Below are positions 36 through 60,637 of a stretch of DNA of 64,000 nt, in pieces. Source of the DNA: an uncultured Candidatus Saccharibacteria bacterium. Lineage in GTDB: Bacteria > Patescibacteriota > WWE3 > UBA101185 > UBA10185. Made by a program: the position numbers and the translations under genes. The notes under the pieces are model-generated. The model saw only the letters and a list, made by a program, of their open reading frames with translations, ran no database searches and was not told the DNA's origin. Every line of letters starts with the position of its first letter. Positions within the stretch are counted from its first letter, which is position 1. The stretch lies in assembly GCA_964510435.1 (NCBI GenBank), contig CAZEBU010000001.1, positions 144,791-208,790 of the forward strand, given 5' to 3'.

Positions 36-683
36 ATGAAGAGCAGGATACTTTTATTTATATTAATATTTGCAGCCTTTGGTCTTTTTTATTCCCAAAT
101 TTCTTATGTCTATGCTCAGGAAGTCCAGGGGAAGGAAACTCTTGCTACTCCCACATTCCCCAATTGTAATAACCCTCAAGGGGCATTAAAAGTCTCCTAT
201 GCTACCGGTATTCACGGAATCCCGGGAAGTGCCAGCACCAACACAGGAAGCGATGCTGTCTACAACCTCTCGGAAATCACTCTAACCCAATGTTTCTGCT
301 CATTAAACGGGGATGGTACACAAACAAATTGGTGGAAAGTCTCCAGTTTGACCATCGAACAAATAGAGTTCTTACTCGCTCAGGGATGGGTTTATATTCC
401 TGATGGCTCTGCATGGGGTTTAGATGAGGATCCATATGTAGCTTTTAATAGTAGATATGCGTGCGAAGAAGATGATGACGGTGATGACAACGACGAAAAC
501 GAAAATGATGATAGCGATCACGACAAAAAAGACAAGAAAAAAATGGGCTCCGTGCTAGGCATAGGAGGGCAGGTACTTGGTTTAGCTACTACAGGAAATA
601 TCTCTAGTCTTTATCTTTTTCTTGGGACAGGCGTGACATCTGCTGTGCTTTTATCCATCCTGCTAATTAAAAAGGAAAAGTGA
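36..683 (+). CDS. Secreted acidic protein with C-terminal sortase sorting signal (LATTG + hydrophobic stretch + KKEK tail); probable sortase substrate
   Basis: N-terminal signal peptide (MKSRILLFILIFAAFGLF). D/E/N-rich run (EEDDDGDDNDENENDDSDHD). C-terminus is GLATTGNISSLYLFLGTGVTSAVLLSILLIKKEK, i.e. an LAXTG-type motif, a hydrophobic segment and a basic tail. A sortase gene follows directly with a 4-nt overlap. Confidence 0.6.
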   Translation: MKSRILLFILIFAAFGLFYSQISYVYAQEVQGKETLATPTFPNCNNPQGALKVSYATGIHGIPGSASTNTGSDAVYNLSEITLTQCFCSLNGDGTQTNWWKVSSLTIEQIEFLLAQGWVYIPDGSAWGLDEDPYVAFNSRYACEEDDDGDDNDENENDDSDHDKKDKKKMGSVLGIGGQVLGLATTGNISSLYLFLGTGVTSAVLLSILLIKKEK

Positions 684-1219
684 AATTAAAACTCATCACT
701 ATACTACTGATAGTCATTACTCTGGTTTCTTTCTATGAAGTTGTAGTTATTTATCATAAGCGCCATCGGGATCTAAGCAGTAATTATGTGCAGGTGGAAG
801 CCGGCACCCTCACGCCCGTGCGTTTTGTCATCAAAGATCTAAACATTAACTTATCTGTTTACGAGTCTGAGATCTTCGAAGGAGAATGGCAAGATTCTGA
901 GGAGGGAATTTCCTACTTAAAAACCTCACCTCTACCCGGTGATGAAGGAAACAGCATTATGTACGGACACAATTGGGAAAATATATTGGGAAATCTGAAA
1001 GACATTCAGCAAGATGCTGAAATAGAAATCACCTTCAGCGACGGGGAATCCAGGATATTTAAACTACAAGACAAGTTTGAGGTCACTGCTGACCAAACAC
1101 ATATACTTTCTAACAGCGACTATCCTAAACTCACTATTTACACTTGCGATGACTTCCTGGATTCTAAAAGGCTTGTGGTGACAGCTGTTCCCAAGGATGC
1201 ATTACTGGGTAACCTGTAG
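680..1219 (+). CDS. Sortase (transpeptidase), possibly class E-like given the LAXTG substrate
   Basis: N-terminal TM anchor. His motif MYGHNW, catalytic TLxTC-like LTIYTCDDF, and a downstream conserved Arg (KRLVVTAV). Translationally coupled to the upstream LATTG protein. Confidence 0.75.
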   Translation: MKLKLITILLIVITLVSFYEVVVIYHKRHRDLSSNYVQVEAGTLTPVRFVIKDLNINLSVYESEIFEGEWQDSEEGISYLKTSPLPGDEGNSIMYGHNWENILGNLKDIQQDAEIEITFSDGESRIFKLQDKFEVTADQTHILSNSDYPKLTIYTCDDFLDSKRLVVTAVPKDALLGNL

Positions 1220-1306
1220 TAGTGGTGGTTAACTAGCCTGTAGTAATGGGGTTTTGGCTTAAAGATGGGTAAATACCACATTTTCCGATAAACGAAGGTG
1301 CGCTTA

Positions 1307-1335
1307 TTGACAAAGAGGAGGAGGTACTATAGTAT
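1307..1335 (+). promoter_or_regulatory. Putative sigma70-like promoter upstream of the TasA-like gene array
   Basis: TTGACA at 1307-1312, followed by TATAGT/TAGTAT-like -10 candidates at 1328-1335 with a 15-17 nt spacer, in an AT-rich intergenic region. Downstream gene has a strong SD (AAGGAGGTG at 1515-1523) 7 nt before a TTG start at 1531. Confidence 0.3.
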
Positions 1336-1530
1336 TTTTTTATTGCTTAGATTTCATATCTTTGTAATATAAATTCCGAGACTATATGAATAGAATGAAT
1401 AGAAAGTTTTCCTGCCGAGGCAAGAAAAACTAAATAGCCTTAGCAAGTATATGTCGGCAAATTGCTGGCATTTTTTGTCTCTGAAGATTGTAATTTGGAA
1501 AATTAAAATATTTTAAGGAGGTGAAGTTTC

Positions 1531-2826
1531 TTGAAAGTTAATAGAAAAATCTTGAGAAGTGCACTGATCATTACTGTGGCGTCCTTGGCAATAGTAGCTG
1601 GAGGTTCTACAGCATTTTTTAGTGATACTGAAACTTCCACTGATAACGTATTGCAAGCGGGTGCGATTGATCTAAGGATTGATAACAACAGCTACTATAA
1701 CGGCGAACGTTCCACAGAAACTTCTTGGAGACTTGCTGACCTTACAGATCAACTATTCTTCAATTTTTATGACCTAAAACCAGGCGACTGGGGTGAAGAC
1801 ACCATTAGCGCACACATTACCAACAATGATGCTTGGTTGTGCATGGATATAACCGTCACAGATACGCCTGACAATGGTCTAACCGAACCGGAATCAGAAG
1901 TTGATGACACCCCGGAAGTAGGCGAGCTACAAAATTACCTCAAGTTTGTCTTCTGGGCTGACGATGGCGACAACGTCCTGGAAGAAGATGAGGTAGAGGG
2001 AATAATTGCCAACAATGTTCCTCTAAGTGAGATAGGAACAGTAGCGTTAGCTGACTCCGAATACAATATTTGGTCTCAGGAACCTAACGATCCCCTAGAG
2101 GGAGGCGAAAGAAACGAGCCTGTGTACTACGTTGGTAAGGCATGGTGTTTTGGTGATTTGACGTTAAATCCCGTTGCACCAGGCGATAATAGTCCGTTAG
2201 ACGACCCTGGTATCTTATGCGACGGAAGAACCGCCGGCAACGAATCTCAGACGGATGCTGTCTGGGCTGATGTTTCTTTCACAGCTGTACAGGCCAGGCA
2301 CAACGGCTCCTATAAATGTGTTGGCTGCGAAGTATCCGGAGACGGGTGGGCTAGCAGTGTCTATGACTCAACACAGGGTCTAAGGAAAAACGGCACAGCA
2401 GTGCCGGTAGGCAGATCTGATCCTACTGAGGCATTAGGTGCTCCGGATGGAGTATTCTACAGCCTGGGATACGGTGGTGAACTAGTGGTTACTTTCCCCG
2501 GCTATATCACCGGGAACGTAACTGCAGTTGAGGTTACCTTCGGACGAGCAGGCTATCCCGAAGAATTGGCTGACGTATCGGTCAGCGAAGACGGATCAAA
2601 CTGGTGCGACGTGGGTACCGCTTCGAACAAGGACACTAATGGAATATCAACCTTTGACGTATCCGGCTGCGGTCTTTCGGACATTGGATATGTCAGGTTA
2701 GTAGATGCTTCAGATCCGGATCTGCATAATACTACATCCGACGGATATGATTTGGATGCTGTTGGTGCAGTAATTTGTTTAGATGAACTAGAAAATAATG
2801 TTCGTTTCCAAACAGATATCGACTAG
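1531..2826 (+). CDS. TasA/camelysin-like (peptidase M73-like fold) secreted fibre protein with a SipW-cognate-type signal peptide
   Basis: N-terminus ...GGSTAFFSDTETSTDNVLQAGAIDLRIDN... and LKPGDWGED resemble the B. subtilis TasA mature N-terminus (AFNDIKSKDATFASGTLDLSAKEN...LKPGDKLTKDF). TTG start preceded by a strong SD. Tandem paralog of the next gene. Confidence 0.7.
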   Translation: MKVNRKILRSALIITVASLAIVAGGSTAFFSDTETSTDNVLQAGAIDLRIDNNSYYNGERSTETSWRLADLTDQLFFNFYDLKPGDWGEDTISAHITNNDAWLCMDITVTDTPDNGLTEPESEVDDTPEVGELQNYLKFVFWADDGDNVLEEDEVEGIIANNVPLSEIGTVALADSEYNIWSQEPNDPLEGGERNEPVYYVGKAWCFGDLTLNPVAPGDNSPLDDPGILCDGRTAGNESQTDAVWADVSFTAVQARHNGSYKCVGCEVSGDGWASSVYDSTQGLRKNGTAVPVGRSDPTEALGAPDGVFYSLGYGGELVVTFPGYITGNVTAVEVTFGRAGYPEELADVSVSEDGSNWCDVGTASNKDTNGISTFDVSGCGLSDIGYVRLVDASDPDLHNTTSDGYDLDAVGAVICLDELENNVRFQTDID

Positions 2827-2873
2827 AAAAAATTAGCAAATAAATTTAAGTAATTTTTAAGGGGGTGAACTAA

Positions 2874-4247
2874 ATGAATAGAACTAAAAGAATACTACTT
2901 AGCTTAGTACTGGTAGGTGCAGTGGCTGCGTTAGTTGGTCTAGGTTCTGCCGCTTTCTTTAGCGATACAGAAACCTCAACTGATAACGTTTTTCAAGCCG
3001 GTGAGATAGACTTGAAGATAGATAATGAAAGTTACTACAACGGAAGGTTCTCTGAACGAACAAGCTGGAAGTTAACAGATCTTACTGTCGAAAAGTTCTT
3101 CGACTTCTTTGATCTCAAACCTGGTGACTGGGGTGAAGATACTATTTCACTTCACGTAACTTCCAATCCCGCATGGGTTTGTGCCAATGTTGAACTTACT
3201 TCTAATCCTGAAAACGGAATCCTAGACCCAGAGGCTGAGGCAGGTGATACTTCCTCAGGCCCATGGAGAGGTGAGCTAGCCCAAGAATTGAAGTTTATCT
3301 TCTGGGCTGACGATGGAGACAACGTTTGGGAATGTTTAGAAAGAGACCAAACACCTAAAAGAGGGAACAGGGCACTTTGGGCTCAAGTTGGGGATAGACT
3401 CTGTGAACGACCTCTCTTAAGAGGTGTCCCGGCACAATTATTCCCGCAAGGGCAAGGTGGAACCACCTTCCCGATAGCAGATGCTTCAAGAGAAGCGCCA
3501 TTCAATAATCCTATGCAACCGGATCACACTTACTTCATTGGTAAGTATTGGTGTTTCGGTGAAATGGGTCTGGATCCGGTACTGTGGGATCAGGGGGAAA
3601 ATCCAACAGTACGTACAGGCTTTACTTGCGACGGCGAACCTGTAGGCAATCTCTCTCAAGGTGATGGTCTTACTGCAGACATTTCTTTCAAAGCTGTACA
3701 GGCCAGACATAACGAGGAGTTTGTTTGCGATTCAGGAATGACTATGGACCTGGAAAACAAAGATGGGAATTGGTCCGTTATAGACGACGATACCTGGGGA
3801 ACATTCTCCTACTACAGTGGAGAGGATACCTTCCACGGCTCAGTTTACGGACAAGGTTTAGAATCTGATGCTCTGTATCAGATCACACTAAACGGTCCCG
3901 GGCCTTGTACAACAACAGATGGTTATTTAGCCGGGTTTGGCAGTAACCTGTTCGAAAGTGGCTATTGGAATAATTGGGCTCCAGGTTTGGCTCCCACTTG
4001 TACTGGTAGTCCAGGCGAAGGTATATATAACATGAACTTAATCGACGATCATTACACCGTCATAACTGATGGCAGTGGAAAGTTCACTTACCCATTTGAT
4101 TTGTCACTTCCTTCTGGAACCTATACGGGTGTGAAGGTATTGGTAAAGAAAATGTTGGATACGCACGTATCGCCTTGGGTAGACAACTCAACCGAGCATA
4201 CAACTAACTTGTTTGAGACAGCCCCTGTCTCGTTTACTGTTAATTAG
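2874..4247 (+). CDS. TasA/camelysin-like paralog with SipW-cognate-type signal peptide and a divergent C-terminal half
   Basis: N-terminal 200 aa are nearly collinear with the previous gene: AAFFSDTETSTDNVFQAGEIDLKIDNESYYNG, FFDLKPGDWGEDTISLHVTSN, LKFIFWADDGDNV, FKAVQARHN. SD AAGGGGGTG lies before the ATG. The C-terminal ~200 aa are unrelated to the paralog. Confidence 0.7.
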   Translation: MNRTKRILLSLVLVGAVAALVGLGSAAFFSDTETSTDNVFQAGEIDLKIDNESYYNGRFSERTSWKLTDLTVEKFFDFFDLKPGDWGEDTISLHVTSNPAWVCANVELTSNPENGILDPEAEAGDTSSGPWRGELAQELKFIFWADDGDNVWECLERDQTPKRGNRALWAQVGDRLCERPLLRGVPAQLFPQGQGGTTFPIADASREAPFNNPMQPDHTYFIGKYWCFGEMGLDPVLWDQGENPTVRTGFTCDGEPVGNLSQGDGLTADISFKAVQARHNEEFVCDSGMTMDLENKDGNWSVIDDDTWGTFSYYSGEDTFHGSVYGQGLESDALYQITLNGPGPCTTTDGYLAGFGSNLFESGYWNNWAPGLAPTCTGSPGEGIYNMNLIDDHYTVITDGSGKFTYPFDLSLPSGTYTGVKVLVKKMLDTHVSPWVDNSTEHTTNLFETAPVSFTVN

Positions 4248-4350
4248 TAAATGAGAAACAAAGTGGTGCTCAACACCTTTTAGGCAGGCTCAGCCACCTA
4301 CCGCCAACCGGGTAAACCTGTTGGCAAACTGGCTGAGCAGGCCTATAAAG

Positions 4351-5046
4351 ATGGTTAAGAAGAAAAGTAAAAAGAAAAAAGAGCAAAGTAGACTTGCCAT
4401 ATCTGCTGATTTGTTTCAGTGGGTAGTTGTATTCCTGCTGGTATTTACATCAGCCTCCTTAGTACTTTCAAATTTTGATACACCTTTAAGGTTTAGGGTT
4501 TTTAGCATCAATTCGGGGTCTATGAAACCAGCCGTCAAATTGGGCGACCTGGTCTTTGTTTTTCCTAGGGACCGCTATTATGAAAATGAGATCATCTCTT
4601 TTTCCGGTCGAGCAAATTTACGGCAGGTCACCACCCATAGGATTTTTTCCGTGAGCGATGACAGGGATCTTGACCGAATATCTTATGTTACTAAGGGGGA
4701 TGCCAATGAAGACCCGGACAGCGGGTTTATCTTGCATGATCGGGTGATAGGCAAAGTGGTTTTCAAGCTGCCGTTGTTAGGTTTTTTAGTAGCTTTTGCC
4801 AAGACGCGTGCCGGTTTTACCTTGTTAGTGGTCATTCCGGCAACCATTCTCGTTTACAGCGAGCTGAGTAGTTTGAGAAAGGAAGTTTCGGGTTTGCTGA
4901 AGAGTCGGAAGAAAGCTAAAGAAAAGGCCGAAAAAGTTAAGATAGCTTCCAAAAAGAAGGAAGAAAAATCATCGACAAAGAAAAGGGCTCTAAAAAATAT
5001 TAAAAAAACTAAGATTAAACGAAAACAATATGAGGACACTAAATAA
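4351..5046 (+). CDS. sipW: Signal peptidase I of the SipW/archaeal-eukaryal type (S26B) with a Lys-rich C-terminal tail
   Basis: SGSMKP (catalytic Ser box), GDLVFV, conserved His in TTHRIF, TKGDANEDP (GDNN-like Asp box), N- and C-terminal TM segments, then a ~50-aa K/E-rich tail. The ORF track starts at a TTG at 4321; the ATG at 4351 (MVKKKSKKKK) is preferred. Confidence 0.75.
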   Translation: MVKKKSKKKKEQSRLAISADLFQWVVVFLLVFTSASLVLSNFDTPLRFRVFSINSGSMKPAVKLGDLVFVFPRDRYYENEIISFSGRANLRQVTTHRIFSVSDDRDLDRISYVTKGDANEDPDSGFILHDRVIGKVVFKLPLLGFLVAFAKTRAGFTLLVVIPATILVYSELSSLRKEVSGLLKSRKKAKEKAEKVKIASKKKEEKSSTKKRALKNIKKTKIKRKQYEDTK

Positions 5047-6952
5047 AAAACAAATTAATAGCGTTTTTTTAAAGATTGTCGCTGCTGCAGTGGTGGGAGC
5101 TCTATTATCCTCAACCACAGCGCACGCTTTCTTTTACGAGGATTCGGAAAGCTCAACTGCCAATGTCTTTTCTTCTACAAGCTTAGATTTAGGCTTGGCT
5201 TCAGACGAGGACAACTTCGAACCTAATGATGGTTGGATACCCGGCAGTTCCGCGGAAAGAATCTTTTTTGTCACCAACGAAGGCGATCTTCCCTTTGTCT
5301 ACGGTCTCAAGTACACCAATGGTGACTCCAACGATCTTTGTGAAAACACTGAACTGCAGGTCATGTATGACGGCGACGAACTCTACAACGACAAGCTGGA
5401 GGACTTTGACATCTTTTACGACTCCGGCGATCCCTTTTTAGATCATATGATGCTGCCGGCGGGACCGGATGAGCACGAATATTACTTTAAAATTTGGCTG
5501 CCTATTGATACGAATGGTGATGCCGCAGATGAAACTTGTAATTTTGATATTGCCGCCTACGCCTGGCAAGAACCATTAGAGCCTTATACCGGATTTTGGG
5601 ATGAAGACTCCTTAAGCAACGAAATAGAATCCGCCGACTGGGAAGGAGACCTAACTTGCAACATCGGTGAAACTGTCTTCATGATCGGCGACGAAGATGA
5701 TCCAATGGAAAATCCGGTTGATGAACTCAACTGGCCAGGTGAATTTGGCGTCTTTCCTGACTTTGCAGATCCGTTTGTAGTGGGTACTAACAATGATAAC
5801 GAATTCCCCTGGAATTCCAATTACGTAAAAGATGAGGCTACAGATTTTGACATTGACTTTTTCTACGCCGGTAAAGACGGGCTGGCCAAATTAACCATTT
5901 CCTGGTCGCCGGGGAGATCAGCCGCCGAACAAAAAGAGGTCTTCTTGGACGGTGACAGCGTGGGCACTACACCCAACAGAACAGGGGTATCTACAGCCGG
6001 TTGGTGGGAAAACATGCCTAGATTTGAAGATGAATTTATCTTCCCGTTATCACAAGGGACGCACACTCTAAACCTAAAGCATCTCAAGGGCGACGGTACT
6101 TTATGGGATTGGGTCGAGCTGGAAATTATTGGCTGCAGTGCAGGGGAAGGTGACGTGATCATTAACGAAATTATGTGGATGGGCTCTGACAGCTCATTCG
6201 AAGATGAATGGGTCGAACTTTACAACGACACAGACCATGATATTAATTTAGACTACTGGACCATTGACAACGCCGGAGACGGTAGCAAGCTTACACTTCC
6301 GGTCGGATCAGTAATTCCTGCCCACAGTTATTATTTAATTTCTAATTTCGCTGCCGACGACGGAGATTCTGCCCTCTCCGACACCAACATCAGCCCTGAC
6401 TATATCACCGGGGATCTTGACTTGGATAATGACGGAGAAACACTTACGCTTAAAGACGCTTTCGAAAATACCGTCGATGAAGCTGACGGTGGTAGTGGCT
6501 GGCCTGCCGGAGAGAACGGGGATGATAAAAAATCCATGGAACGAAACGATGTCCCTTCTACAGGCTGGCACACTTGTACGGATTCCGAATGCAACGACAC
6601 TGATTTCTGGGACAGTGAGGGTGACAATTACGGTACGCCAAAAGCCGAAAATAAATCCGAAAATGATCCTTCGCAGGAGCTTTTGCAGGAAATTTTAGAG
6701 GACATCGGTGAACCGGTACTCGACGTAGTGCCAAATCTGGAAGTTGACCTTTCTGCTGAAGAGGCCGTGGAAGAAACCGTGGAAGATATACCTACACAAG
6801 ATGCCGTTATAAAGGAGGAGGAAACTGTCGAGGGCACAAGCGAAGAGGAAGGCTCACCGGACGGCACACCGCCAACAACCGAACCGGATGAGGAAACCAC
6901 TGTAGAAGAACCTGCTGAAGAGGAAATTACCGAGGAAATAGTCAATGAATAA
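5030..6952 (+). CDS. Secreted protein with SipW-cognate-like signal, a lamin-tail domain (LTD) and an acidic C-terminal tail
   Basis: N-terminus TAHAFFYEDSESSTANVFSSTSLDL resembles the TasA-type signal. GDVIINEIMWMGSDSSFEDEWVELYNDTDHDINLDYWTIDNAGDG matches the LTD pattern (INE...EWIELYN...L.GW). The C-terminus is E/T/P-rich. Overlaps sipW by 17 nt. Confidence 0.6.
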   Translation: MRTLNKKQINSVFLKIVAAAVVGALLSSTTAHAFFYEDSESSTANVFSSTSLDLGLASDEDNFEPNDGWIPGSSAERIFFVTNEGDLPFVYGLKYTNGDSNDLCENTELQVMYDGDELYNDKLEDFDIFYDSGDPFLDHMMLPAGPDEHEYYFKIWLPIDTNGDAADETCNFDIAAYAWQEPLEPYTGFWDEDSLSNEIESADWEGDLTCNIGETVFMIGDEDDPMENPVDELNWPGEFGVFPDFADPFVVGTNNDNEFPWNSNYVKDEATDFDIDFFYAGKDGLAKLTISWSPGRSAAEQKEVFLDGDSVGTTPNRTGVSTAGWWENMPRFEDEFIFPLSQGTHTLNLKHLKGDGTLWDWVELEIIGCSAGEGDVIINEIMWMGSDSSFEDEWVELYNDTDHDINLDYWTIDNAGDGSKLTLPVGSVIPAHSYYLISNFAADDGDSALSDTNISPDYITGDLDLDNDGETLTLKDAFENTVDEADGGSGWPAGENGDDKKSMERNDVPSTGWHTCTDSECNDTDFWDSEGDNYGTPKAENKSENDPSQELLQEILEDIGEPVLDVVPNLEVDLSAEEAVEETVEDIPTQDAVIKEEETVEGTSEEEGSPDGTPPTTEPDEETTVEEPAEEEITEEIVNE

Positions 6953-9125
6953 ATATAACGTCAGCAAAATATTAATAGTGTTTCTCACAGGTCTTTTTTT
7001 TGCACTGGCCGGAAGCAAAGCTTTAGCGATAACGGAAGAAATAACCATTACCTGCAACCCCGGAGACGAAGGCCCCAATAATTGCGCGGTACTGCCTTCC
7101 AACACAGCGCCCCTCTTTGACGAAAACGACTATCCTCTCTTTGATCTAAAACCGGGGGATGAAATTCACCGGGAAATCACTGTGACCAACAATCGAGAAG
7201 AAACTTGCTACTTTACCCTAACGGACGCCACTAAAACCCACGACACGGAAACACCTCCCACCTCGGGAAACTACTTTTCGGATAGATTGGAAACGGAAAT
7301 AACCGACGGTGTTGACACCACTGGTCTGATCTCTTTTGCTACTCTTTTTGGCTTAACGGATATTTACTTGGCCGAACTTGCCCCTTTTGAAACAAAAACA
7401 CTGGATTGGGACGTTTTCTTTGACAAAAACGCCGGCAACGAATACCAGAACGCCCGCTTGGTGTTTGATTTCACCTGGAATTTCAACTGTGGTGAGGAAC
7501 CTCCACAGACTGAGCTTTTCATCGAAAAAACCAATAACAAAATAGGTATAACCCAGTTGCCAGGAGCAGATGTAACTTACACCATTTTTGTAACCGCTTC
7601 CCAATTTTATCCGGTTTTCAACGTTATTGTTCTTGACCTACCGCCAGGAGGATTCACCTATACACCCGGCAGCTGGACAGCGAATTCCAGTGTGAGAGGA
7701 AACATAAAAGGCTTGGGAACTACCACGGAGCCAAGCTACACCTCACCGGGACTCTGGAACCTGGGTGATATGGAAGCTGGAGAGGTAGTTACTCTAACCT
7801 ATGTCACAAACATTAGCTCCTCTCAACAGCCCGGCTTATATAAAGACATTGCCTGGACAGAGGGTACCGCTACTTCAGACCCTACGTCAACTCGAGTCTT
7901 AGGAAATGCAGGTACAGGATTTTTTGTAGGCACTTCAGCCGCAGTTGATATAGAGGATCCCAAGGAAGTACAGGTAGAACCCGAAATAGAAATTATAAAA
8001 ATAGAAGAAGGAGAAGTTTTGGGAGCGGAAATATTGCCAGCCACCGGAGCCAATAACATCTGGGTTTTTATCATTTCCAACCTTTTTGGGATCGGTGTGA
8101 TCCTCACTATCATCGGCTTATATTTAAAGAGACACCGCAAGGGTGCGAGAACAGCCTTGCAGATCTTTGTCTTCCTTGCTGCTGCAGCACTTACCTTCTC
8201 AGCAAACGCTTTTGCCACCGATCTTCTCATTAGGCTTGCGGAGCCGGCAAGTCCCAACAACCTTAATGAGCTGGACCTAAATTTTGTCGCTATGGATGTT
8301 GAAAATAGGGCAGTCACCGTAAAGTGTTTTAAAAAGGGACCAAGCGAAGCAGCATTCTCACAGTTTGGGTCATCTACCATCACTATACCGGGTGGAGATA
8401 CAGGATATTGTGATGTAACCTCATCCGTTCTCTCCGGCATGGGAACTTACAAATTTTACGCTACAGCAGACGCAGGCGGTGATAATAGCACCAGCCAAAC
8501 GGTAACTATTGAACATGACGACGAACGCCCGGGAAAACCTCACAACTTAGACAAAGACAAAAACGGTTCCTGCAAATACGACATCAGCTTTACCACAGAC
8601 TCCGATGGAGGAGACACAGTTAGGGTTGAGGTTTATCGTTCGGATGATAAGGAATTTTACGTCAACGACTCTACAAAAATTAAGGACATCGTAGTTGGCT
8701 CAGACACAGACGTTAGCTTCACAGATGATAGACCAACCTGCGGTAAAACCTACTACTATGCTGTGGCGGCTTTTGACGCGGCGGGAAATCGTTCGAAAAT
8801 ACTCGTCGAAGAATTAGAAAAAGAAAAAATAATTATCAAGACCACTAAGGAAACAGAAATAACATCAGTTTTTGGAGAGATCACGGAGGCTATCGCCCTA
8901 GGAGAAGGTGCCATAACGACTCCAGAGGAAGAAGATACGGAAGAAGTCATCGAGGAGGAGGAGCTAAGTGTGGAAAAAGAGAAGGAAGAGAAGGTTTTAG
9001 GTCTGCAGGAAGTGTCGGAAGAAGAAGGGGCTTTCTCGGAACTACTAAAAATCTTAAAGTGGCCTGTTCTAGTTCTGCTAGTTTTGATAATCTTGCTTTA
9101 TGTTAGAAAGAAACTTAAAAGGTAG
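6945..9125 (+). CDS. Mosaic surface protein: TasA-like N-domain, an internal LPATG sorting signal with a TM segment and basic patch, then a second module with a fibronectin-III-like segment, an acidic tail and a C-terminal TM anchor
   Basis: Signal peptide. LFDLKPGDEIHREITVTNN (TasA-like). EILPATGANNIWVFIISNLFGIGVILTIIGLYLKRHRKG at about aa 360. A second hydrophobic segment follows (ALQIFVFLAAAALTFSANAFA). TCGKTYYYAVAAFDAAGNRS is Fn3-like. The C-terminus is ...WPVLVLLVLIILLYVRKKLKR. Confidence 0.55.
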   Translation: MNKYNVSKILIVFLTGLFFALAGSKALAITEEITITCNPGDEGPNNCAVLPSNTAPLFDENDYPLFDLKPGDEIHREITVTNNREETCYFTLTDATKTHDTETPPTSGNYFSDRLETEITDGVDTTGLISFATLFGLTDIYLAELAPFETKTLDWDVFFDKNAGNEYQNARLVFDFTWNFNCGEEPPQTELFIEKTNNKIGITQLPGADVTYTIFVTASQFYPVFNVIVLDLPPGGFTYTPGSWTANSSVRGNIKGLGTTTEPSYTSPGLWNLGDMEAGEVVTLTYVTNISSSQQPGLYKDIAWTEGTATSDPTSTRVLGNAGTGFFVGTSAAVDIEDPKEVQVEPEIEIIKIEEGEVLGAEILPATGANNIWVFIISNLFGIGVILTIIGLYLKRHRKGARTALQIFVFLAAAALTFSANAFATDLLIRLAEPASPNNLNELDLNFVAMDVENRAVTVKCFKKGPSEAAFSQFGSSTITIPGGDTGYCDVTSSVLSGMGTYKFYATADAGGDNSTSQTVTIEHDDERPGKPHNLDKDKNGSCKYDISFTTDSDGGDTVRVEVYRSDDKEFYVNDSTKIKDIVVGSDTDVSFTDDRPTCGKTYYYAVAAFDAAGNRSKILVEELEKEKIIIKTTKETEITSVFGEITEAIALGEGAITTPEEEDTEEVIEEEELSVEKEKEEKVLGLQEVSEEEGAFSELLKILKWPVLVLLVLIILLYVRKKLKR

Positions 9126-9762
9126 ACTCCCCGATCTTCTTATCAAAGCCGGTTCTGCGCTCATCCTGGCTGCCGGGGTTTTTTTTGTGGTAGCTTTTTA
9201 TCCCAGCATCGTTTCGGAGACAAAATATCTTTTCCTCAAGCCAAATGAAGATGCTAAGATCATCGTCGATCCAAACCCTAATTTAGATAATAAAACAAGA
9301 GAAAAGTACTACATCAAGCCGGCCGATCCCGAATTTGGACTGGTTATACCTAAGATAGGTGCTAATTCTAAGGTTGTACCCAATGTAAATGCCTACGATC
9401 CTAAAATATATCAACAAGCGTTAACCAAGGGTGTAGCTCATGCGGAAGGTACTGTTTTCCCCGGGCAAATTGGTAACATTTTTGTTTTTTCCCACTCCTC
9501 CAGCAATTTCTACGAGGCAAACAAGTATAATTCTGTTTTTTATCTTCTTAGAAAACTAAACGCTGACGACTTTTTCTATTTTACTTATCAAGGGAAAGTG
9601 TATAAGTACAAGGTAAGAGAGACGAAAATAGTTGAACCAGAAGAAGTTGAGTACTTAACACAGACAACAAGCAAAAAACAAGCCACTCTTATGACCTGCT
9701 GGCCTCCGGGAACTACTCTAAAAAGACTCTTGGTCGTTGGGGAGCTAGTGGAACAGAATTAG
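9100..9762 (+). CDS. Sortase (second copy)
   Basis: N-terminal TM. His motif VFSHSS, catalytic TLMTCWPPG, and Arg in KRLLVVGE. Overlaps the end of the previous gene by 26 nt. Confidence 0.75.
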   Translation: MLERNLKGRLPDLLIKAGSALILAAGVFFVVAFYPSIVSETKYLFLKPNEDAKIIVDPNPNLDNKTREKYYIKPADPEFGLVIPKIGANSKVVPNVNAYDPKIYQQALTKGVAHAEGTVFPGQIGNIFVFSHSSSNFYEANKYNSVFYLLRKLNADDFFYFTYQGKVYKYKVRETKIVEPEEVEYLTQTTSKKQATLMTCWPPGTTLKRLLVVGELVEQN

Positions 9763-10632: not shown

Positions 10633-10977
10633 ATGCTAAAAAAACAAAACCGCCTCTCCACTAAATTTGAATTTAATGTCACGAGAAAACACGGTATAAA
10701 AAAGACCTATGACTATTTTCATTTATTTTACCTAAAACCTAACAATTACGAAGGTTCGGTTAAGATCGGTATTGTCATCCCCAATAAGTTCCATAAAAAT
10801 GCCGTAACGAGAAATAGAATTAAAAGGGTATTTAGAGAATTAATTAGAGGAAATATCAAAAAGCTACCCGATAACACCTGGCTGGTATTCCATCCAAAAG
10901 TAGAAAGTATTAAAGCAAGCCATGAAAAAATTAGCACTGATATTAATAAGGCTCTATCAGAAATTTCTCTCTCCTGA
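10633..10977 (+). CDS. rnpA: Ribonuclease P protein component
   Basis: RNRIKR (RNR motif), basic composition, 114 aa, directly downstream of rpmH. Confidence 0.85.
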   Translation: MLKKQNRLSTKFEFNVTRKHGIKKTYDYFHLFYLKPNNYEGSVKIGIVIPNKFHKNAVTRNRIKRVFRELIRGNIKKLPDNTWLVFHPKVESIKASHEKISTDINKALSEISLS

Positions 10978-11137
10978 AAACTTTGGTTTTCAAGTATGTA
11001 GATTCGAACCGAGTTGTTCAAGATACACCTATAAGGCTGTTGAGAAATATGGTTTATTAAAAGGAGGACTGATGGGACTATACAGAGTTGTAAGATGCAA
11101 CCCCTTTAACAAAGGTGGATCAGACCCCTTGCTTTAA
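10922..11137 (+). CDS. yidD: Membrane protein insertion efficiency factor YidD
   Basis: CRFEPSCSRY (Cys-x-F-x-P-S-C-S-x-Y hallmark), 71 aa. Overlaps the rnpA 3' end, as is common. Confidence 0.85.
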   Translation: MKKLALILIRLYQKFLSPENFGFQVCRFEPSCSRYTYKAVEKYGLLKGGLMGLYRVVRCNPFNKGGSDPLL

Positions 11138-11173
11138 CCAACACACTCTGGCAAAATAACACCTGTTGTCATT

Positions 11174-11947
11174 ATGCTATTAGAACTATACCAAACAATA
11201 TTAGTCAACCCCATATTCAATACCCTAGCCTTGGTATTTCTGTTAACAAATAGTTTGGGTTTTTCCATTATTGGCCTCACCATTGTAGTTAAGACCATAT
11301 CCATTCCGGCTATGCTGCCTTCACTAAGATCGATAAAAAAGCAAAGAAATTTACAACCTCAATTAGACAAGCTCAAAAAAAAATATAAGTACGATAAAAA
11401 GAAACAAGCCGAGCTGCAGATGCAGCTTTTCAAGGAACACGGCATTAATCCTGCCTCCGGTTGTTACAGCATGATCATTACCATACTGATCTTTACTGCT
11501 CTGTATTCCGTGATCAGACAAATAACTCAAGTGGCCGACATTTCCGAAATTAACGCACACCTATACTTTGATTTCCTCAAGTTCACCTCACTAGAGCAGC
11601 TCTCCACAAAGTTTTTCTATCTGGATCTGGCCACACCCGACCCCTACTTTATTATGGCTATACTGGCCGGTGTAACACAATTCATATTGGCAAAAATGAC
11701 CATGCCCTACGTGGAACAAGGTGTTAAAGCCGCTAAAAAAACTCCTGACAAGAAAGATGATTTTGCGTATAATATGCAGAAGCAGTCCATGTACATCATG
11801 CCTGGTATGATGGCTCTGTTGGGATTGAGTCTGCCCTCCGGTGTGATCATGTACATAATCACATCAACCATCTTTTCAGTTGTGCAAAATTATTTTATAA
11901 ATGGATGGGGAGGATTACAGCCCTTAATTAATAAGATAAAAAAGTAA
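11174..11947 (+). CDS. yidC: Membrane protein insertase YidC (short, Gram-positive/Oxa1-like form)
   Basis: Multi-TM with conserved YidC core segments (GLTIVVKTISIP, KEHGINPASGC, MYIMP). Canonical rnpA-yidD-yidC context. Confidence 0.8.
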   Translation: MLLELYQTILVNPIFNTLALVFLLTNSLGFSIIGLTIVVKTISIPAMLPSLRSIKKQRNLQPQLDKLKKKYKYDKKKQAELQMQLFKEHGINPASGCYSMIITILIFTALYSVIRQITQVADISEINAHLYFDFLKFTSLEQLSTKFFYLDLATPDPYFIMAILAGVTQFILAKMTMPYVEQGVKAAKKTPDKKDDFAYNMQKQSMYIMPGMMALLGLSLPSGVIMYIITSTIFSVVQNYFINGWGGLQPLINKIKK

Positions 11948-11948
11948 G

Positions 11949-12392
11949 ATGTCCAAAGAAGCAATAGATAAACATTTGAAAACACTCTTGGGCTATATTG
12001 ACATTGCGCCCGAAGTAACCATTGAGGAAGATGGGGAAGCCTTCAGGATCGATATCCATGGGGACGACCTGAATTTCCTGATCGGCTACAGAGGTGAGTC
12101 TCTGGATGCTTTGCAGTATATTCTCAGCCACGCCGTTTACAAGGACACCAGCAATTGGATACCTCTCACTCTGGATATCAATGGCTATAGAAAACAAAAA
12201 TTAGAAAAGCTGGAGGAAATGGTCATGGCGATCGTCGATAGAGTAAGATTCCATCAAAAAGAGATCAAACTGCCGCCGCTTTCTCCTTTCGAAAGAAGAC
12301 ATATTCACTTGTTTATTGAGGAGTACGTTGATGTAAATAGCGAAAGCAGAGGAGAAGGAAGACAACGAAGATTGTTTCTCATACCTAAATAA
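11949..12392 (+). CDS. jag: Jag/KhpB-like RNA-binding protein (KH + R3H)
   Basis: LIGYRGESLDALQYIL (KH-like GxxG region) and C-terminal R3H-like FERRHIHL. Conserved position after yidC. Confidence 0.75.
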   Translation: MSKEAIDKHLKTLLGYIDIAPEVTIEEDGEAFRIDIHGDDLNFLIGYRGESLDALQYILSHAVYKDTSNWIPLTLDINGYRKQKLEKLEEMVMAIVDRVRFHQKEIKLPPLSPFERRHIHLFIEEYVDVNSESRGEGRQRRLFLIPK

Positions 12393-13507
12393 TGAAGTTT
12401 ACATGCCTGCAAGAAAACCTAACCGACGCATTAACAAAAGTGTATCGCGCCGTACCTACAAAAAGTGAGCTGCCTATTCTCTCCAATATCTTGATCTCTG
12501 CTGAAGACAACCGGCTAAAGATCTCGGCCACTAATTTGTCAACCACTATTGTCACTCACGTAGGCGCCTCTATCGAAGAGGAAGGTGCTATAACCATCCC
12601 GGCTAAAATGCTCAGAGACTACATCGCTAACTTAAGTTCATCTTCCCTAGAAGCTTTTTTAAAAGAAGATATCCTACATGTCAATTCAGAGGCCACCAAA
12701 TCAAGATTTAACGGTGTATCAGCAGAAGATTATCCTGATCTTCCCGAAGAAAACAGCGAGCTAAAAACATTGGAAATTAATGCACAGAAATTTTATGAGG
12801 CCATATCTTCTGTGTCTTTTTGCGCTTCCATTGATGATAGTAGACCGATCTTCACAGGAGTGTATTTTGACTGTGACGGCAAACAGATCACTATTGCCGC
12901 TTCCGACGGGTTTAGATTGTCAGAAGCAAAAATCACTCCGGAAAATAAACCGGGTAAGTTTAGGGTTATTATCCCGGCAAAAACTTTAACCGACTTGGCG
13001 AGAGTTTTTTCGGATCGGGAAGAAAGTATTAAACTCACCTTGGATACAAGAGACAACTTAGCAATTTTTAAACAAGGAGACACCTTAATAGCCACCAGGA
13101 TACTTGACGGTGAATACCCGGATTATACAAAAATCATTCCGGAAGAGACCTCAACGATAGTAGAATTATCCACCAACGAGTTTTTAGAAGCCGTAAAGCT
13201 AACCGATATATTTGCCAAAGAAGCAGATAGCGCTTTGGTCATGAAAATTGACCCCAAAGGTTTTGTTGAGTTGGTAGCTACCGCCCAAGAATCCGGAGAG
13301 CATAAACACAAAATAAAAACGGGTGTAGAAGCAAAAGAAAAACTGGAAATAGGTTTTAACTCAAAATTTTTACTTGATTTCCTAAACAATGTTAAGTCGG
13401 AAAGGATATCCATAAGCACTAACGGAAATTCGGCTCCTTGCATTTTTAAGGCCGTAGATAAGGAAAACTACTTACATATCATTATGCCTATGCAGATCAA
13501 TGGCTAA
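12392..13507 (+). CDS. dnaN: DNA polymerase III beta sliding clamp
   Basis: 371 aa with three-domain clamp architecture. N-terminus MKFTCLQENLTDAL...LSNILISAEDNRLKISATNL is typical of DnaN. Confidence 0.9.
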   Translation: MKFTCLQENLTDALTKVYRAVPTKSELPILSNILISAEDNRLKISATNLSTTIVTHVGASIEEEGAITIPAKMLRDYIANLSSSSLEAFLKEDILHVNSEATKSRFNGVSAEDYPDLPEENSELKTLEINAQKFYEAISSVSFCASIDDSRPIFTGVYFDCDGKQITIAASDGFRLSEAKITPENKPGKFRVIIPAKTLTDLARVFSDREESIKLTLDTRDNLAIFKQGDTLIATRILDGEYPDYTKIIPEETSTIVELSTNEFLEAVKLTDIFAKEADSALVMKIDPKGFVELVATAQESGEHKHKIKTGVEAKEKLEIGFNSKFLLDFLNNVKSERISISTNGNSAPCIFKAVDKENYLHIIMPMQING

Positions 13508-29479: not shown

Positions 29480-29554
29480 TGGAGGCGCAGAGGGGAATCG
29501 AACCCCCGCATCGAGGTTTTGCAGACCCCAGCGTTTCCACTTCGCCACTGCGCC
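29480..29554 (-). tRNA. tRNA-Cys (anticodon GCA)
   Basis: Reverse complement reads GGCGCAGTGGCGAAGTGGAAACGCTGGGGTCTGCAAAACCTCGATGCGGGGGTTCGATTCCCCTCTGCGCCTCCA. Acceptor stem GGCGCAG/CTGCGCC, anticodon loop CTGCAAA (T33, GCA, A37), T-arm GGGGG-TTCGATT-CCCCC, encoded CCA end. Confidence 0.75.
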
Positions 29555-58840: not shown

Positions 58841-59917
58841 ATGACTTATATAGACGTGAAAGTTAAAAGAGAAAAACCCAAGAAGAAAAAGTCTATCTTT
58901 ACCAAAATTCTGGTGACCATAATAGTTCCGGGATTACTCATTGGAGGAGGAGTAGTGGTTGCAAAAAAGGGTGTGCACTGGTTTGATCCTATTTCTATTG
59001 TTGCCACTGTTTCAGCGTCGGATCTGAGGGAGACTGACGGCAGGACAAATTTATTACTTTTGGGGTCGGATAAAAGAATGGCGGGAACTATCGAGTCTGA
59101 ACTCACAGACACTCTTCTTGTAGTCTCTATAGGAAGGGTTGAGCATGATGTTGTTCTGATATCCCTACCTAGAGATCTCTGGGTCAAGGATTCGCGAGGC
59201 GCAAAGTCAAAGATTAACGCTGTTTATACTTTGAATAAAGAAGATCAATCAGATATTGTCACAGGAGGAGAAGCCATCATGCAGGTGGCCAGCGATGTCC
59301 TGGGGGTACCTGTGCATTATTATTCAGTAATAAATTTTGAGTTATTTAAAGATGTGGTTGATATTTTAGGTGGTGTAGAAGTTGAAGTAGAAAGAAGTTT
59401 TACCGATTACAGCTACCCTGTGGAGGGTAAGGAAAACGCCCCGCTCTCAGAAAGATACGAAACTATAGAATTTAAGGAAGGCCTGCAAAACATGGACGGA
59501 GATGCGGCCCTTAAATTCGTGCGCTCTAGAAAAGGTACAAACGGAGAAAGTACCGATTTTGCCAGGTCGGAAAGACAACAAAAAGTGATCTCGGCTATAA
59601 AAAACAAGGCTCTTTCCATAGAAACTCTTATTAATCCCATAAAAATAAAAGAACTATACGATATTTACAGCAATGAAATTGATACAAACATTATGTTTAA
59701 TGACGTACAGAGTTTTTACTTACTATCCCAACAAGTTGATTTTAATCGCATAACCTCAATTGTCTTGGACGATAGAAGTGCTGCAGACGAAGGTGGTTTA
59801 TTATATTCCCCTGTTGATGATGAACTTTACGGTGGCGCGTATGTGCTCATCCCCAAAGTTGGGGATTTCTCCCAACTGCACGCATATGTACAAAGATATC
59901 TATTTAGCCAAAAGTAA
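58841..59917 (+). CDS. LytR-CpsA-Psr (LCP) family cell-envelope polymer transferase
   Basis: N-terminal TM. LLLLGSDKRMAGT...DTLLVVSI...VVLISLPRDLWV core. 358 aa. Confidence 0.8.
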   Translation: MTYIDVKVKREKPKKKKSIFTKILVTIIVPGLLIGGGVVVAKKGVHWFDPISIVATVSASDLRETDGRTNLLLLGSDKRMAGTIESELTDTLLVVSIGRVEHDVVLISLPRDLWVKDSRGAKSKINAVYTLNKEDQSDIVTGGEAIMQVASDVLGVPVHYYSVINFELFKDVVDILGGVEVEVERSFTDYSYPVEGKENAPLSERYETIEFKEGLQNMDGDAALKFVRSRKGTNGESTDFARSERQQKVISAIKNKALSIETLINPIKIKELYDIYSNEIDTNIMFNDVQSFYLLSQQVDFNRITSIVLDDRSAADEGGLLYSPVDDELYGGAYVLIPKVGDFSQLHAYVQRYLFSQK

Positions 59918-59931
59918 TTAGGTAAAACGTT

Positions 59932-60633
59932 ATGATCTACATTGTTCACGGAGATGATTATCCAAAATCAAGAAGGCTGATAATTAACCAGCAAAAAAAG
60001 ATTTCTTCAAACATAAAAATCGAGAGAGATCTCTCCAACTTAACACCGAAAGAACTTTACGAAGCAGCATGTTCATTTGACCTTTTTGGGAATCCACCCC
60101 TTTTAGTAGTAACTCTCCCTCCGGGAAAAGTTGCTGAAATAAAAGATTATTTAAAAATATTGAAAAAAATACCCAAGAAGACAACCGTAATACTCTTAAG
60201 TGAAAAAAAACTAGGAAAAACTAACCGCTTTATTAGATCTGCGCCTGAATTAAAGGCTAAGGTAATTTTTAATCAGAAACCCTCAATTTCCAATGTCTTT
60301 AAATTTTTGGATAATCTTTACATACAGAACCGAAAAGGCACTTATAAAGAGCTTGAATCTCTTATCGAAGAAAACGCTGAAGCGTTTTTCATTTTGTCTA
60401 TGATCTTGTACGGATTAAGAAATTTGGTGCATGCAAAGTTTCTCACCGGGGAATTTTTGGCTAAAAGCGATTTCGTGAAAAGCAAAATCTTAAAACAGGC
60501 CGAAAATTTTACCCGAGAAGAAGTCATTGGCTTATTTGATTTTATCTACAACACAGATAAAAAAATAAAAACCGGCCAAATTCAACCTGACATAGCGCTT
60601 ACCCACACCATAGAAAAAATTCTCAGTTTATAA
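59932..60633 (+). CDS. holA: DNA polymerase III delta subunit-like (short HolA-like)
   Basis: N-terminal MIYIVHGDDYPKS...LFGNPPLLVV resembles the HolA N-domain (hYLLYGeD...). Only 233 aa, so tentative. Confidence 0.35.
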   Translation: MIYIVHGDDYPKSRRLIINQQKKISSNIKIERDLSNLTPKELYEAACSFDLFGNPPLLVVTLPPGKVAEIKDYLKILKKIPKKTTVILLSEKKLGKTNRFIRSAPELKAKVIFNQKPSISNVFKFLDNLYIQNRKGTYKELESLIEENAEAFFILSMILYGLRNLVHAKFLTGEFLAKSDFVKSKILKQAENFTREEVIGLFDFIYNTDKKIKTGQIQPDIALTHTIEKILSL

Positions 60634-60637
60634 TCTT

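Follow-up and report, generated by a model that had tools for sequence, protein, structure and literature searches.

Do the genes for a TasA-like fibre and for sortases, found side by side in a bacterium of the Candidate Phyla Radiation (CPR, or Patescibacteria), encode a single surface structure, and how would its parts be joined? The question is raised by positions 36-9762 of a 64,000-nucleotide (nt) stretch of contig CAZEBU010000001.1, called the window throughout, in which a first-pass annotation had noticed nine consecutive genes for TasA-like proteins, a signal peptidase of SipW type and two sortases with their substrates. All the components that it listed are present, on one strand and where it had placed them; the number nine was a miscount. 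The region contains eight open reading frames (ORFs), all on the + strand:

36-683, +: g1, 215 amino acids (aa), small protein with an LATTG sorting signal
680-1219, +: srt1, 179 aa, sortase
1531-2826, +: tasA1, 431 aa, TasA-like protein
2874-4247, +: tasA2, 457 aa, TasA-like protein
4321-5046, +: sipW, 241 aa, signal peptidase
5030-6952, +: g6, 640 aa, TasA-like protein with a lamin tail
6945-9125, +: g7, 726 aa, two-part protein with an internal LPATG signal
9100-9762, +: srt2, 220 aa, sortase

The 311-nt gap 1220-1530 was considered as the site of a ninth gene and rejected, since it holds just ORFs of 21-47 aa, none of them convincing. The region consists of two units, the pair g1 and srt1 (36-1219) and an operon that runs from tasA1 to srt2 (1531-9762). 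The second of these somewhat probably encodes a non-covalent fibre of TasA type, with a base that a sortase attaches to peptidoglycan.

Nucleotides 1531-9762 form one operon, in which sipW begins 73 nt downstream of tasA2 and the following genes overlap, sipW with g6 by 17 nt, g6 with g7 by 8 nt and g7 with srt2 by 26 nt; g1 and srt1 overlap by 4 nt. A promoter-like site in the gap between srt1 and tasA1 (TTGACA-17-TAGTAT, 1307-1335, + strand, a consensus match only) suggests that a separate transcription unit begins there, and the number of promoter-like sites in the region does not exceed the expectation from shuffled sequence. Strong Shine-Dalgarno sequences precede tasA1 (AAGGAGGTG) and tasA2 (AAGGGGGTG) alone, a pattern that is as expected for genes of major subunits. 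A terminator-like hairpin, again a consensus match only, is found at 4214-4232, at the extreme end of tasA2 and ahead of sipW. By attenuating read-through, this hairpin could cause the major subunits to outnumber the peptidase, minor subunits and sortase.

The tasA1 and tasA2 products fall in TasA and SipW-cognate families, as the first-pass annotation had proposed for the proteins with AFFSD and LKPGD motifs, and not in an unrelated family. They score 25.7 and 30.8 bits, respectively, against the SipW-cognate signal model TIGR04088 (cut-off 19) and 26.3 and 24.9 bits against PF12389 (Peptidase_M73; cut-off 22.5). Because the PF12389 match covers just the signal peptide and first strand (residues ~8-54), the evidence that the mature domains are TasA-like comes from a fold search and from profile comparisons. 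The tasA1 product combines a SipW-type signal with the donor-strand motif AFFSDTE (nt 1612-1632) and an LKPGD motif. In the tasA2 product, whose N-terminal peptide is AFFSDTETSTDNVFQAGE, cleavage by SipW is predicted between A26 and A27, before AFFSDTETS (nt 2952-2972). More than 2,300 homologues of tasA2 were retrieved, and wherever a name or record title reveals the lineage it points to CPR/Patescibacteria, evident mislabels aside and with most matches nameless; some are already called 'TasA family protein' by NCBI. Conservation in this family covers ~260 N-terminal residues, and the C-terminal domains are variable, tasA2 having one of its own. The C-terminal domain of tasA1 shows a weak galactose-binding-like match (F5/8 type C, PF22633, E = 0.0028), which lies under the cut-off.

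An AlphaFold2 model of tasA2 residues 27-290, computed from 121 sequences, has a mean predicted local distance difference test score (pLDDT) of 88.9 and a predicted TM-score (pTM) of 0.87. In a Foldseek search with this model, the sole Protein Data Bank (PDB) match at E <= 0.001 is the TasA fibre 8AUR_A (E = 8.4e-5, probability 1.00), and the archaeal bundling pilin AbpA (7UEG) stands at rank 4 (E = 0.01, probability 0.69). A profile of the TasA-like domain compared with PDB sequences gave no TasA match, its sole match being a spurious one to a ribosomal protein (E = 0.24). The first 15 residues of the mature protein (AFFSDTETSTDNVFQ) are disordered in the monomer model (pLDDT <50), and they are the best-conserved stretch of the TasA-like family across the 121 sequences, in which A1, F3, S4, D5, E7, S9, N12, A16, G17, D20 and L21 are nearly invariant. 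An N-terminus that is conserved yet modelled as disordered fits what is expected of a strand that SipW would recognise and that would afterwards pass into an adjacent subunit. Three further residues of tasA2, N38 in the putative donor strand and K82 and E88 in the LKPGDWGED core (window ~2985, 3117 and 3135), show little or no variation within the CPR family and recall the isopeptide residues N35-E56-K74 of BsaA.

These data also bear on the possibility that the TasA-like proteins do not form filaments at all and are instead secreted lectin-like adhesins, an S-layer-like coat or peptidases of the camelysin type (M73), with SipW merely serving their export. Large variable C-terminal domains and the galactose-binding-like match would suit adhesins, NCBI names some homologues 'M73 family metallopeptidase', and no filaments of these proteins are known to have been imaged. 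A role as metalloproteases was rejected, however, because none of the four proteins tasA1, tasA2, g6 and g7 contains an HExxH motif. The best fold match is moreover a TasA fibre subunit, followed by an archaeal pilin that polymerises through donor strands, and the conserved disordered N-terminal strand, the presence of several paralogues per operon and the partner without a donor strand described below all fit assembly into a filament. We consider a non-filamentous role improbable.

The peptidase encoded by sipW is of the S26B type that the first-pass annotation had assigned to it. It matches the endoplasmic reticulum/archaeal-type model TIGR02228 with 77.9 bits (cut-off 51.85), and reaches just 20.7 bits against the bacterial LepB-type model TIGR02227 (cut-off 47), which thus fails. 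With the SipW equivalog model NF046067 it scores 87.5 bits, below the cut-off of 190. Its catalytic motifs are intact, with SGSM (Ser), THR (His) and GDAN boxes, and the protein has a pair of membrane segments and a tail rich in Lys. Its conserved neighbourhood was followed in a scan of GTDB that took a single genome for each species and yielded 77 loci (counts out of 78 add the window). All 77 come from CPR metagenome-assembled genomes (MAGs), some of them evidently mislabelled 'Gammaproteobacteria', and SipW adjoins TasA-like genes in 72/78 loci. Since SipW-cognate substrates adjoin it so regularly, the sipW product is taken as SipW-like: by its sequence and surroundings it appears to be a dedicated peptidase that works like SipW, and by the NCBI criterion it is not an orthologue. 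SipW was counted by single-sequence phmmer, an iterated SipW hidden Markov model (HMM) having drifted to 288 matches through membrane and Lys-rich segments and been discarded. The exact 241-aa ORF is missing from the protein collection, which suggests that another start was called; translation probably begins at the ATG at 4351.

Several loci of the scan carry much longer SipW proteins of 360-613 aa (L023, 12987-14828; L028, 11814-13496; L069, 12581-13666; L071, 13864-15480). In L069 and L071, a single ORF matches both SipW and the lamin-tail domain, and this fusion hints at a direct functional link between the two. Several records whose labels look wrong are third-party annotation (TPA) MAGs entitled 'uncultured Gammaproteobacteria' or 'Pseudomonadales', with typical CPR TasA/SipW loci (L003, L030, L032, L043, L047, L059 and L069).

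The gene that follows sipW encodes a third TasA-like protein, g6. It begins with the SipW-type N-terminus AFFYEDSESS (nt 5126-5149) and continues with a TasA-like domain, a middle domain, a lamin tail and an acidic tail; residues 371-484 match LTD (PF00932) with 57.3 bits (cut-off 34.3). No match to TIGR04088 at E <= 0.1 and none to PF12389 was obtained for g6. Its N-terminal domain aligns with the TasA-like profile at an hhalign probability of 99.2% (E = 3e-19), AFFYEDSESS being placed opposite the AFFSD motif, and g6_N is clearly homologous to the TasA-like domain. A g6-type gene after sipW is also present in L030 and in L160, L161 and L162, three loci that were reached independently of any TasA seed by looking up LPXTG-type homologues of g7. 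We infer that g6 is a minor or tip subunit.

The last structural gene of the operon, g7, encodes a protein of unusual layout, all parts of which lie on the + strand:

6945-8150, +: N-terminal half, predicted to be a wall-anchored base subunit
to 7028, +: ordinary signal peptide of AxA type
7029 to ~7520, +: TasA-superfamily domain without the AFFSD strand, with LKPGD at 7146-7160 and AGNEYQ at 7431-7448
next, +: CLIPPER/DUF11 stalk domain, then an EGEVLG motif
8034-8048, +: LPATG (residue 364)
8049-8126, +: hydrophobic membrane segment of 26 residues
8127-8150, +: basic patch KRHRKGAR
8151-8216, +: second signal-peptide-like segment, in frame, ending in ANAFA
8151-9125, +: C-terminal half, with an Fn3-like ectodomain, an EKVLG motif and an RKKLKR tail
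9060-9104, +: C-terminal membrane helix

The mature N-terminus of g7 starts just four residues ahead of the first β-strand, and no SipW-type N-terminus is present, while the LKPGD motif (here LKPGDE) and the GNEYQ...FDF core are retained. The head domain matches PF12389 at E = 0.25 on its own; 10/26 members of its family (g7_N) do so weakly, the best at 2e-4. A g7_N HMM finds g6-type proteins over nearly the entire domain (E = 3e-9 to 5e-6), and a g6_N HMM finds g7-type proteins in turn (E = 1e-7 to 8e-11). On account of these reciprocal matches, together with the weak PF12389 matches, the g7 head is placed in the TasA superfamily, an assignment made transitively, by way of g6_N. A scan of g7_N relatives with NCBIfam models of the BsaA, TasA and alternate-signal families left just a trace of TIGR04090 (E = 0.002-0.08). 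The lamin-tail protein and the LPATG protein had been listed as genes in addition to four TasA-like paralogues; g6 and g7 are in fact two of the four, and the SipW-type signal that was ascribed to all of them is carried by three, g7 having an AxA signal peptide instead. The stalk domain of g7 matches PF01345, that is, DUF11, since renamed CLIPPER and described as a CnaA-like isopeptide stalk domain (PMC12617251).

The sorting signal of g7 is internal and not C-terminal; the sorting-signal HMM TIGR01167 gave no match at E <= 0.1, and the LPATG is invariant or nearly so among 18 g7 homologues. The notion that two genes were joined into g7 artificially, through misassembly or a frameshift, was rejected, given that the fused layout is kept in 16/18 aligned homologues, which are 33-70% identical to g7. 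L068 and L160 have a gene for each half, one next to the other. Conservation of the fusion and its occurrence as split neighbours indicate that the fusion is real and that the halves form a functional pair. Residues 355-424 (window 8007-8216) give the impression of a precursor designed for two cuts, in which the basic patch would double as the tail of the sortase signal and as the n-region of the second signal peptide. At the C-terminal membrane anchor, the EKVLG motif is present without an LPXTG.

The enzyme predicted to anchor g7 is srt2, which matches Pfam Sortase with 84.4 bits (cut-off 26.6) and contains the motifs SH (residue 131) and TLMTC (residues 196-200) and an Arg further downstream. 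Its best class model is that of class C, at 71.7 bits and below the cut-off of 160, so that srt2 is a CPR sortase outside the defined classes. The class C affinity could be taken to mean that the operon encodes a classical covalent sortase pilus, with srt2 polymerising g7 through a pilin-motif lysine and the TasA-like proteins as accessories. A model of g7 (pLDDT 90.7) indeed finds Gram-positive pilins and adhesins and a CLIPPER structure in fold searches, the major and minor pilins BcpA, RrgB and EbpB among them, matches that are probably driven by the CLIPPER stalk domain. Yet the class C score is less than half its cut-off, g7 contains neither a YPK pilin motif nor an E-box, which are absent from all proteins of the locus, and it is the one LPXTG protein of the operon, tasA1, tasA2 and g6 having no such motif. 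The genes that seem to be strongly translated are the TasA-like ones without LPXTG, and most members of the g7 family lack a sortase and are held by a plain membrane anchor. A covalent pilus is for these reasons very improbable. In SpaA, RrgB and BcpA pili, a dedicated sortase likewise stands at the end of the fibre operon; the major subunits of the window differ from theirs in having no LPXTG, pilin-motif lysine or E-box, and polymerisation would proceed by non-covalent strand exchange instead of transpeptidation.

The link between g7 and its neighbours is supported by synteny. Across CPR lineages, TasA-like genes, SipW, a lamin-tail protein and an anchored subunit recur in this sequence. In the scan, a g7-type gene is present in 25/78 loci, in 25/25 cases on the same strand and 0-2.7 kb 3' of sipW. 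In L030, L043, L066, L161 and L162, the g7-type gene is succeeded by a sortase, either at once or after no more than ~0.3 kb, and in L160 the sortase comes after the separate gene for the C-terminal half of g7 (g7C). L030, L043, L160, L161 and L162 show the order of the window, in which a g7 homologue of LPXTG type precedes a sortase. The three loci found without a TasA seed contain the full set, namely one to three TasA-like genes, SipW, a lamin-tail g6-type gene, a g7-type gene and a sortase. Recurrence in many independent CPR genomes means that the gene arrangement is not due to chance.

Sortase anchoring is nevertheless one of several solutions. The C-termini of 26 g7-type ORFs comprise 13 membrane helices, 6 stretches of RTX-like Ca-binding repeats and at least 4 LPXTG-type signals, and 3 have none of these. 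An exhaustive HMM search (E <= 1e-3) shows that the g7_N family comprises 4,119 cluster representatives. None of the best 150 representatives (0/150) has an AFFSD-type N-terminus, 120/150 end in a terminal membrane helix and ~8-12 carry an LPXTG-like motif. As a rule, members of the g7_N family are subunits that are anchored to the cell and have no donor strand. The general rule is the combination of TasA-like subunits, SipW and a cell-anchored partner that lacks the donor strand, and anchoring by sortase is a recurrent minority that includes the window.

Relatives of g7_N also occur outside the CPR. One match of the g7_N profile is to an LPXTG protein from Bacillus testis (E = 8e-14; L078, LN851186.1), whose LPDTSTN signal matches the NCBI LPxTATN model and whose adjacent class D sortase matches the corresponding model (222 bits). 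This locus of biofilm type (L078, 5190-11960) also contains SipW and two TasA/CalY-like genes and is flanked by sinI/sinR; a short protein that has just the donor-strand-like N-terminus and a Pro/Glu-rich tail is encoded there as well, and so is a coiled-coil protein. No description of it was found in the literature searched. Curtobacterium (actinobacterial) relatives of g7_N have an S26 peptidase adjacent and no sortase nearby. The Bacillus testis locus resembles the window in its SipW, its two SipW-type TasA/CalY-like genes, its homologue of the g7 head with a sorting signal and no donor strand, and its adjacent sortase. It differs in that the sortase is divergent and fits the class D model, in the sinI/sinR flanks, and in having neither a lamin-tail subunit nor a CLIPPER stalk.

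Several observations weigh against a sortase-tethered TasA fibre. A sortase lies within 10 kb in 11/78 loci and is absent from 67/78. No sortase is found near the LPXTG-type g7 homologues of L005, L040 and L067, and the sortases of L066, L069 and L071 follow g7-type proteins with RTX-like repeats and no LPXTG. As to the subunits, the TM-score of the tasA2 model to 8AUR is just 0.38-0.42, direct hhalign comparison relates g7_N just weakly to the TasA-like domain (18.6% probability), and no TasA structure is among the top 60 fold matches of the g7 model, a list in which the stalk probably outweighs the head. The TasA systems of B. subtilis and of B. cereus, which uses CapP, are independent of sortases (PMC13082335), and in C. 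perfringens strain 13 deletion of srtB, which adjoins sipW-bsaA, left BsaA polymers intact (PMC7395162).

Much of this could be accommodated if the region were an island of surface-protein genes, in which g7 and srt2 are an ordinary sortase-adhesin cassette beside a sortase-independent TasA/SipW operon and g7 does not touch the polymer. The rarity of sortases at CPR TasA loci and the indifference of BsaA to the loss of srtB would follow, the g7 model with its CLIPPER stalk (PMC12617251) does resemble Gram-positive adhesins and pilins, and the g1-srt1 pair, treated below, is a cassette that mostly occurs without TasA genes. Such an arrangement, the main rival, is in our estimate unlikely. It is at odds with the placement of the g7 head in the TasA superfamily, with the position of g7-type genes on the same strand just 3' of sipW (3/3 of the independently seeded loci in addition to all those of the scan) and with the translational overlaps between the genes; the consistent lack of the donor strand in a family with cell anchors is also hard to explain for a stand-alone adhesin. 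The proposal that TasA-like major subunits are combined with a sortase-anchored component agrees with what the comparison of loci shows for g7 and srt2.

For the upstream pair the outcome is different. The g1 product is a small secreted Cys-containing protein with an acidic linker, a VLG...VLG motif and an LATTG (nt 582-596) that is followed by ~26 hydrophobic residues and a KKEK tail; it matches no Pfam or NCBIfam family and is the predicted substrate of srt1. The sortase srt1 scores 65.9 bits against Pfam Sortase (PF04203; cut-off 26.6), has the motifs GH (residue 96) and TIYTC (residues 152-156) with an Arg further downstream, and lies outside every defined sortase class (NCBIfam models C, D, E and F), its best scores being 35.9 bits for class D and 30 for class F against cut-offs of ~165. 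The identification of an LATTG protein with its sortase, of a second sortase and of lamin-tail and LPATG proteins in the first-pass annotation is thus upheld by motif reading and by the Pfam Sortase and LTD matches. In a metagenome scan seeded with g1 (80 loci, L080-L159), a sortase stands directly downstream of the g1 homologue in 63/80 loci, most of the others being truncated, and just ~8/80 have a TasA or SipW gene no more than 10 kb away. Because of these two figures, g1 and srt1 are regarded as an autonomous substrate-plus-sortase cassette that happens to adjoin the TasA operon, and the idea that they are integral to the TasA system was rejected as a general rule. Their occurrence beside TasA loci is commoner than chance, yet not regular; L162 carries an upstream substrate-plus-sortase pair too. 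The suggestion that two assembly systems are wired together in this region accordingly holds for srt2 and is doubtful for srt1, whose pair with g1 is probably unrelated.

The g1 family is characterized by a small Cys-containing domain (FPxCxNPQG ... QCFC ... IQTNWW) and an LA[TS]TG signal, and together with a small sortase it constitutes a two-gene cassette that is widespread in CPR metagenomes. Sorting signals of CPR are regularly preceded by an (E/Q/S)VLG motif, which is often duplicated, as in SVLGIGGQVLGLATTG and EGEVLGAEILPATG. Sites of this type are present in the window at 555-596 (g1) and 8007-8048 (g7), as well as in L023, L028, L043, L068, L162, P0165 and P0246, and LPXTG is replaced in places by GAPNTG or GAPHTG. 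The (E/Q/S)VLG motif may be a lineage-specific recognition element for sortases.

From the computed results, namely which genes are present, the families they belong to, the similarity in fold and the conserved synteny, we infer the cleavage sites, polymerisation, an acceptor-only g7, wall anchoring and a fibre function as follows. TasA1, TasA2 and g6 would be exported through Sec, and SipW would cut just ahead of AFFSDTE to free the conserved N-terminal strand. By entering the next subunit, as in the donor-strand exchange of B. subtilis TasA, the freed strand would build a filament, decorated by the variable C-terminal domains and with g6 and its lamin tail as a minor or tip subunit. The cell-proximal end would be formed by g7, whose head, having no donor strand, could accept a strand and could not donate one, and would sit on the isopeptide-type CLIPPER stalk. 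Cleavage of g7 by srt2 between the Thr and Gly of LPATG would link this end to peptidoglycan, and a second cut, by signal peptidase, would release the remainder as a membrane-anchored Fn3-like protein. A broader reading, in which two fibre paradigms are united in one CPR machine with an acceptor-only cap that is sortase-linked in some lineages, g7 is a polyprotein yielding wall-linked and membrane-anchored products in a 1:1 ratio, and the whole represents a second attachment organelle of CPR, is possible and on balance doubtful.

Comparison with known systems shows how far such a fibre would be familiar. B. subtilis TasA fibres are built by donor-strand exchange with TapA as the accessory protein (PMC9674648, PMC10151520). 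The tapA-sipW-tasA operon shares with the window a dedicated SipW and a core of LKPGD type, and probably also an N-terminal strand exposed by cleavage, a jelly-roll subunit and an accessory that connects to the cell. TapA, however, donates a strand and is not anchored covalently, whereas g7 has no donor strand and carries LPATG, and the CPR subunits have large extra C-terminal domains in comparison with B. subtilis TasA. Archaeal AbpA (7UEG; PMC9245690), grouped here with related TasA-like matrix filaments of archaea, is likewise a TasA-like jelly-roll subunit of a polymer held together by donor-strand complementation; its operon includes neither a dedicated peptidase nor a sortase, there is no peptidoglycan, and the similarity is weak.

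The closest parallel in gene content is the C. perfringens locus sipW-bsaA-bsaB-bsaC with srtB, which also combines a peptidase of SipW type, TasA-family paralogues, predicted donor-strand exchange and an adjacent sortase. A 2024/25 preprint reports that BsaA/TasA genes often share operons with LPxTG proteins, a signal peptidase and a sortase, and its authors describe operons with LPxTG proteins, Fn domains and sortases as common (PMC11580942). BsaB bears LPXTG in most C. perfringens strains, and its anchoring by SrtB is a speculation of the same preprint (PMC11580942). C. perfringens is a Firmicute in which srtB is divergent, whereas in the window, which is of CPR origin, srt2 is co-directional within the operon. 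BsaA subunits are locked to one another by an intermolecular N-E-K isopeptide (N35-E56-K74), and the C. perfringens operon lacks both a lamin-tail subunit and a counterpart of the g7 architecture of head, CLIPPER stalk, LPATG and fused protein. Homologues of PF12389 in Patescibacteria were noted by Wang et al. 2022 (PMC9245690), and no paper describing the CPR TasA loci themselves was found in the literature searched. To call the system previously undescribed, as had been done, was therefore an overstatement in view of these two reports, and a gene order of this kind is in part already known as a pilus type, through the C. perfringens work (PMC11580942). The combination is not categorically new; as far as can be told, what is new is the CPR-wide cassette, the family of anchored subunits without a donor strand, and the sortase variant with a precursor that is split by design.

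The surroundings of the locus are as follows. Upstream of g1, an identical metagenome contig (L080) carries genes for envelope glycosylation and no more fibre genes. Directly 3' of srt2 (window 10633-13507) are rnpA, yidD, yidC, a jag-like gene and dnaN, the usual set of an origin region, with no dnaA between these genes. The 64-kb window contains one tRNA gene (29483-29554) and no rRNA gene. A third sortase of 250 aa is encoded at window 60638-61390, 3' of a LytR/CpsA/Psr-like gene and a holA-like gene (58841-61390 for the group); its C-terminal TMVLMTCSPPGTKLKRLL resembles srt2, of which it is probably a paralogue acting as the housekeeping sortase.

CPR bacteria live attached to other microbes, and type IV pili are, to our knowledge, the sole structure that has so far been tied experimentally to this attachment. 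It is plausible that the TasA/SipW fibre locus is an attachment device as well. An operon of TasA/SipW type with an anchored subunit that lacks the donor strand is widespread in CPR, and the anchor family has thousands of representatives. The locus suggests a concrete architecture for it, with a polymerising subunit, a terminating and anchoring subunit, and anchors in the form of a membrane helix, a sortase signal or Ca-binding repeats. It would extend the idea of a sortase-tethered TasA fibre, so far a speculation about Clostridia, to a deeply branching group, and it brings to light in g7 an unusual precursor that a sortase and a signal peptidase are seemingly meant to divide. Should contact with the host be mediated by the fibre, episymbiosis could be studied or blocked by targeting it.

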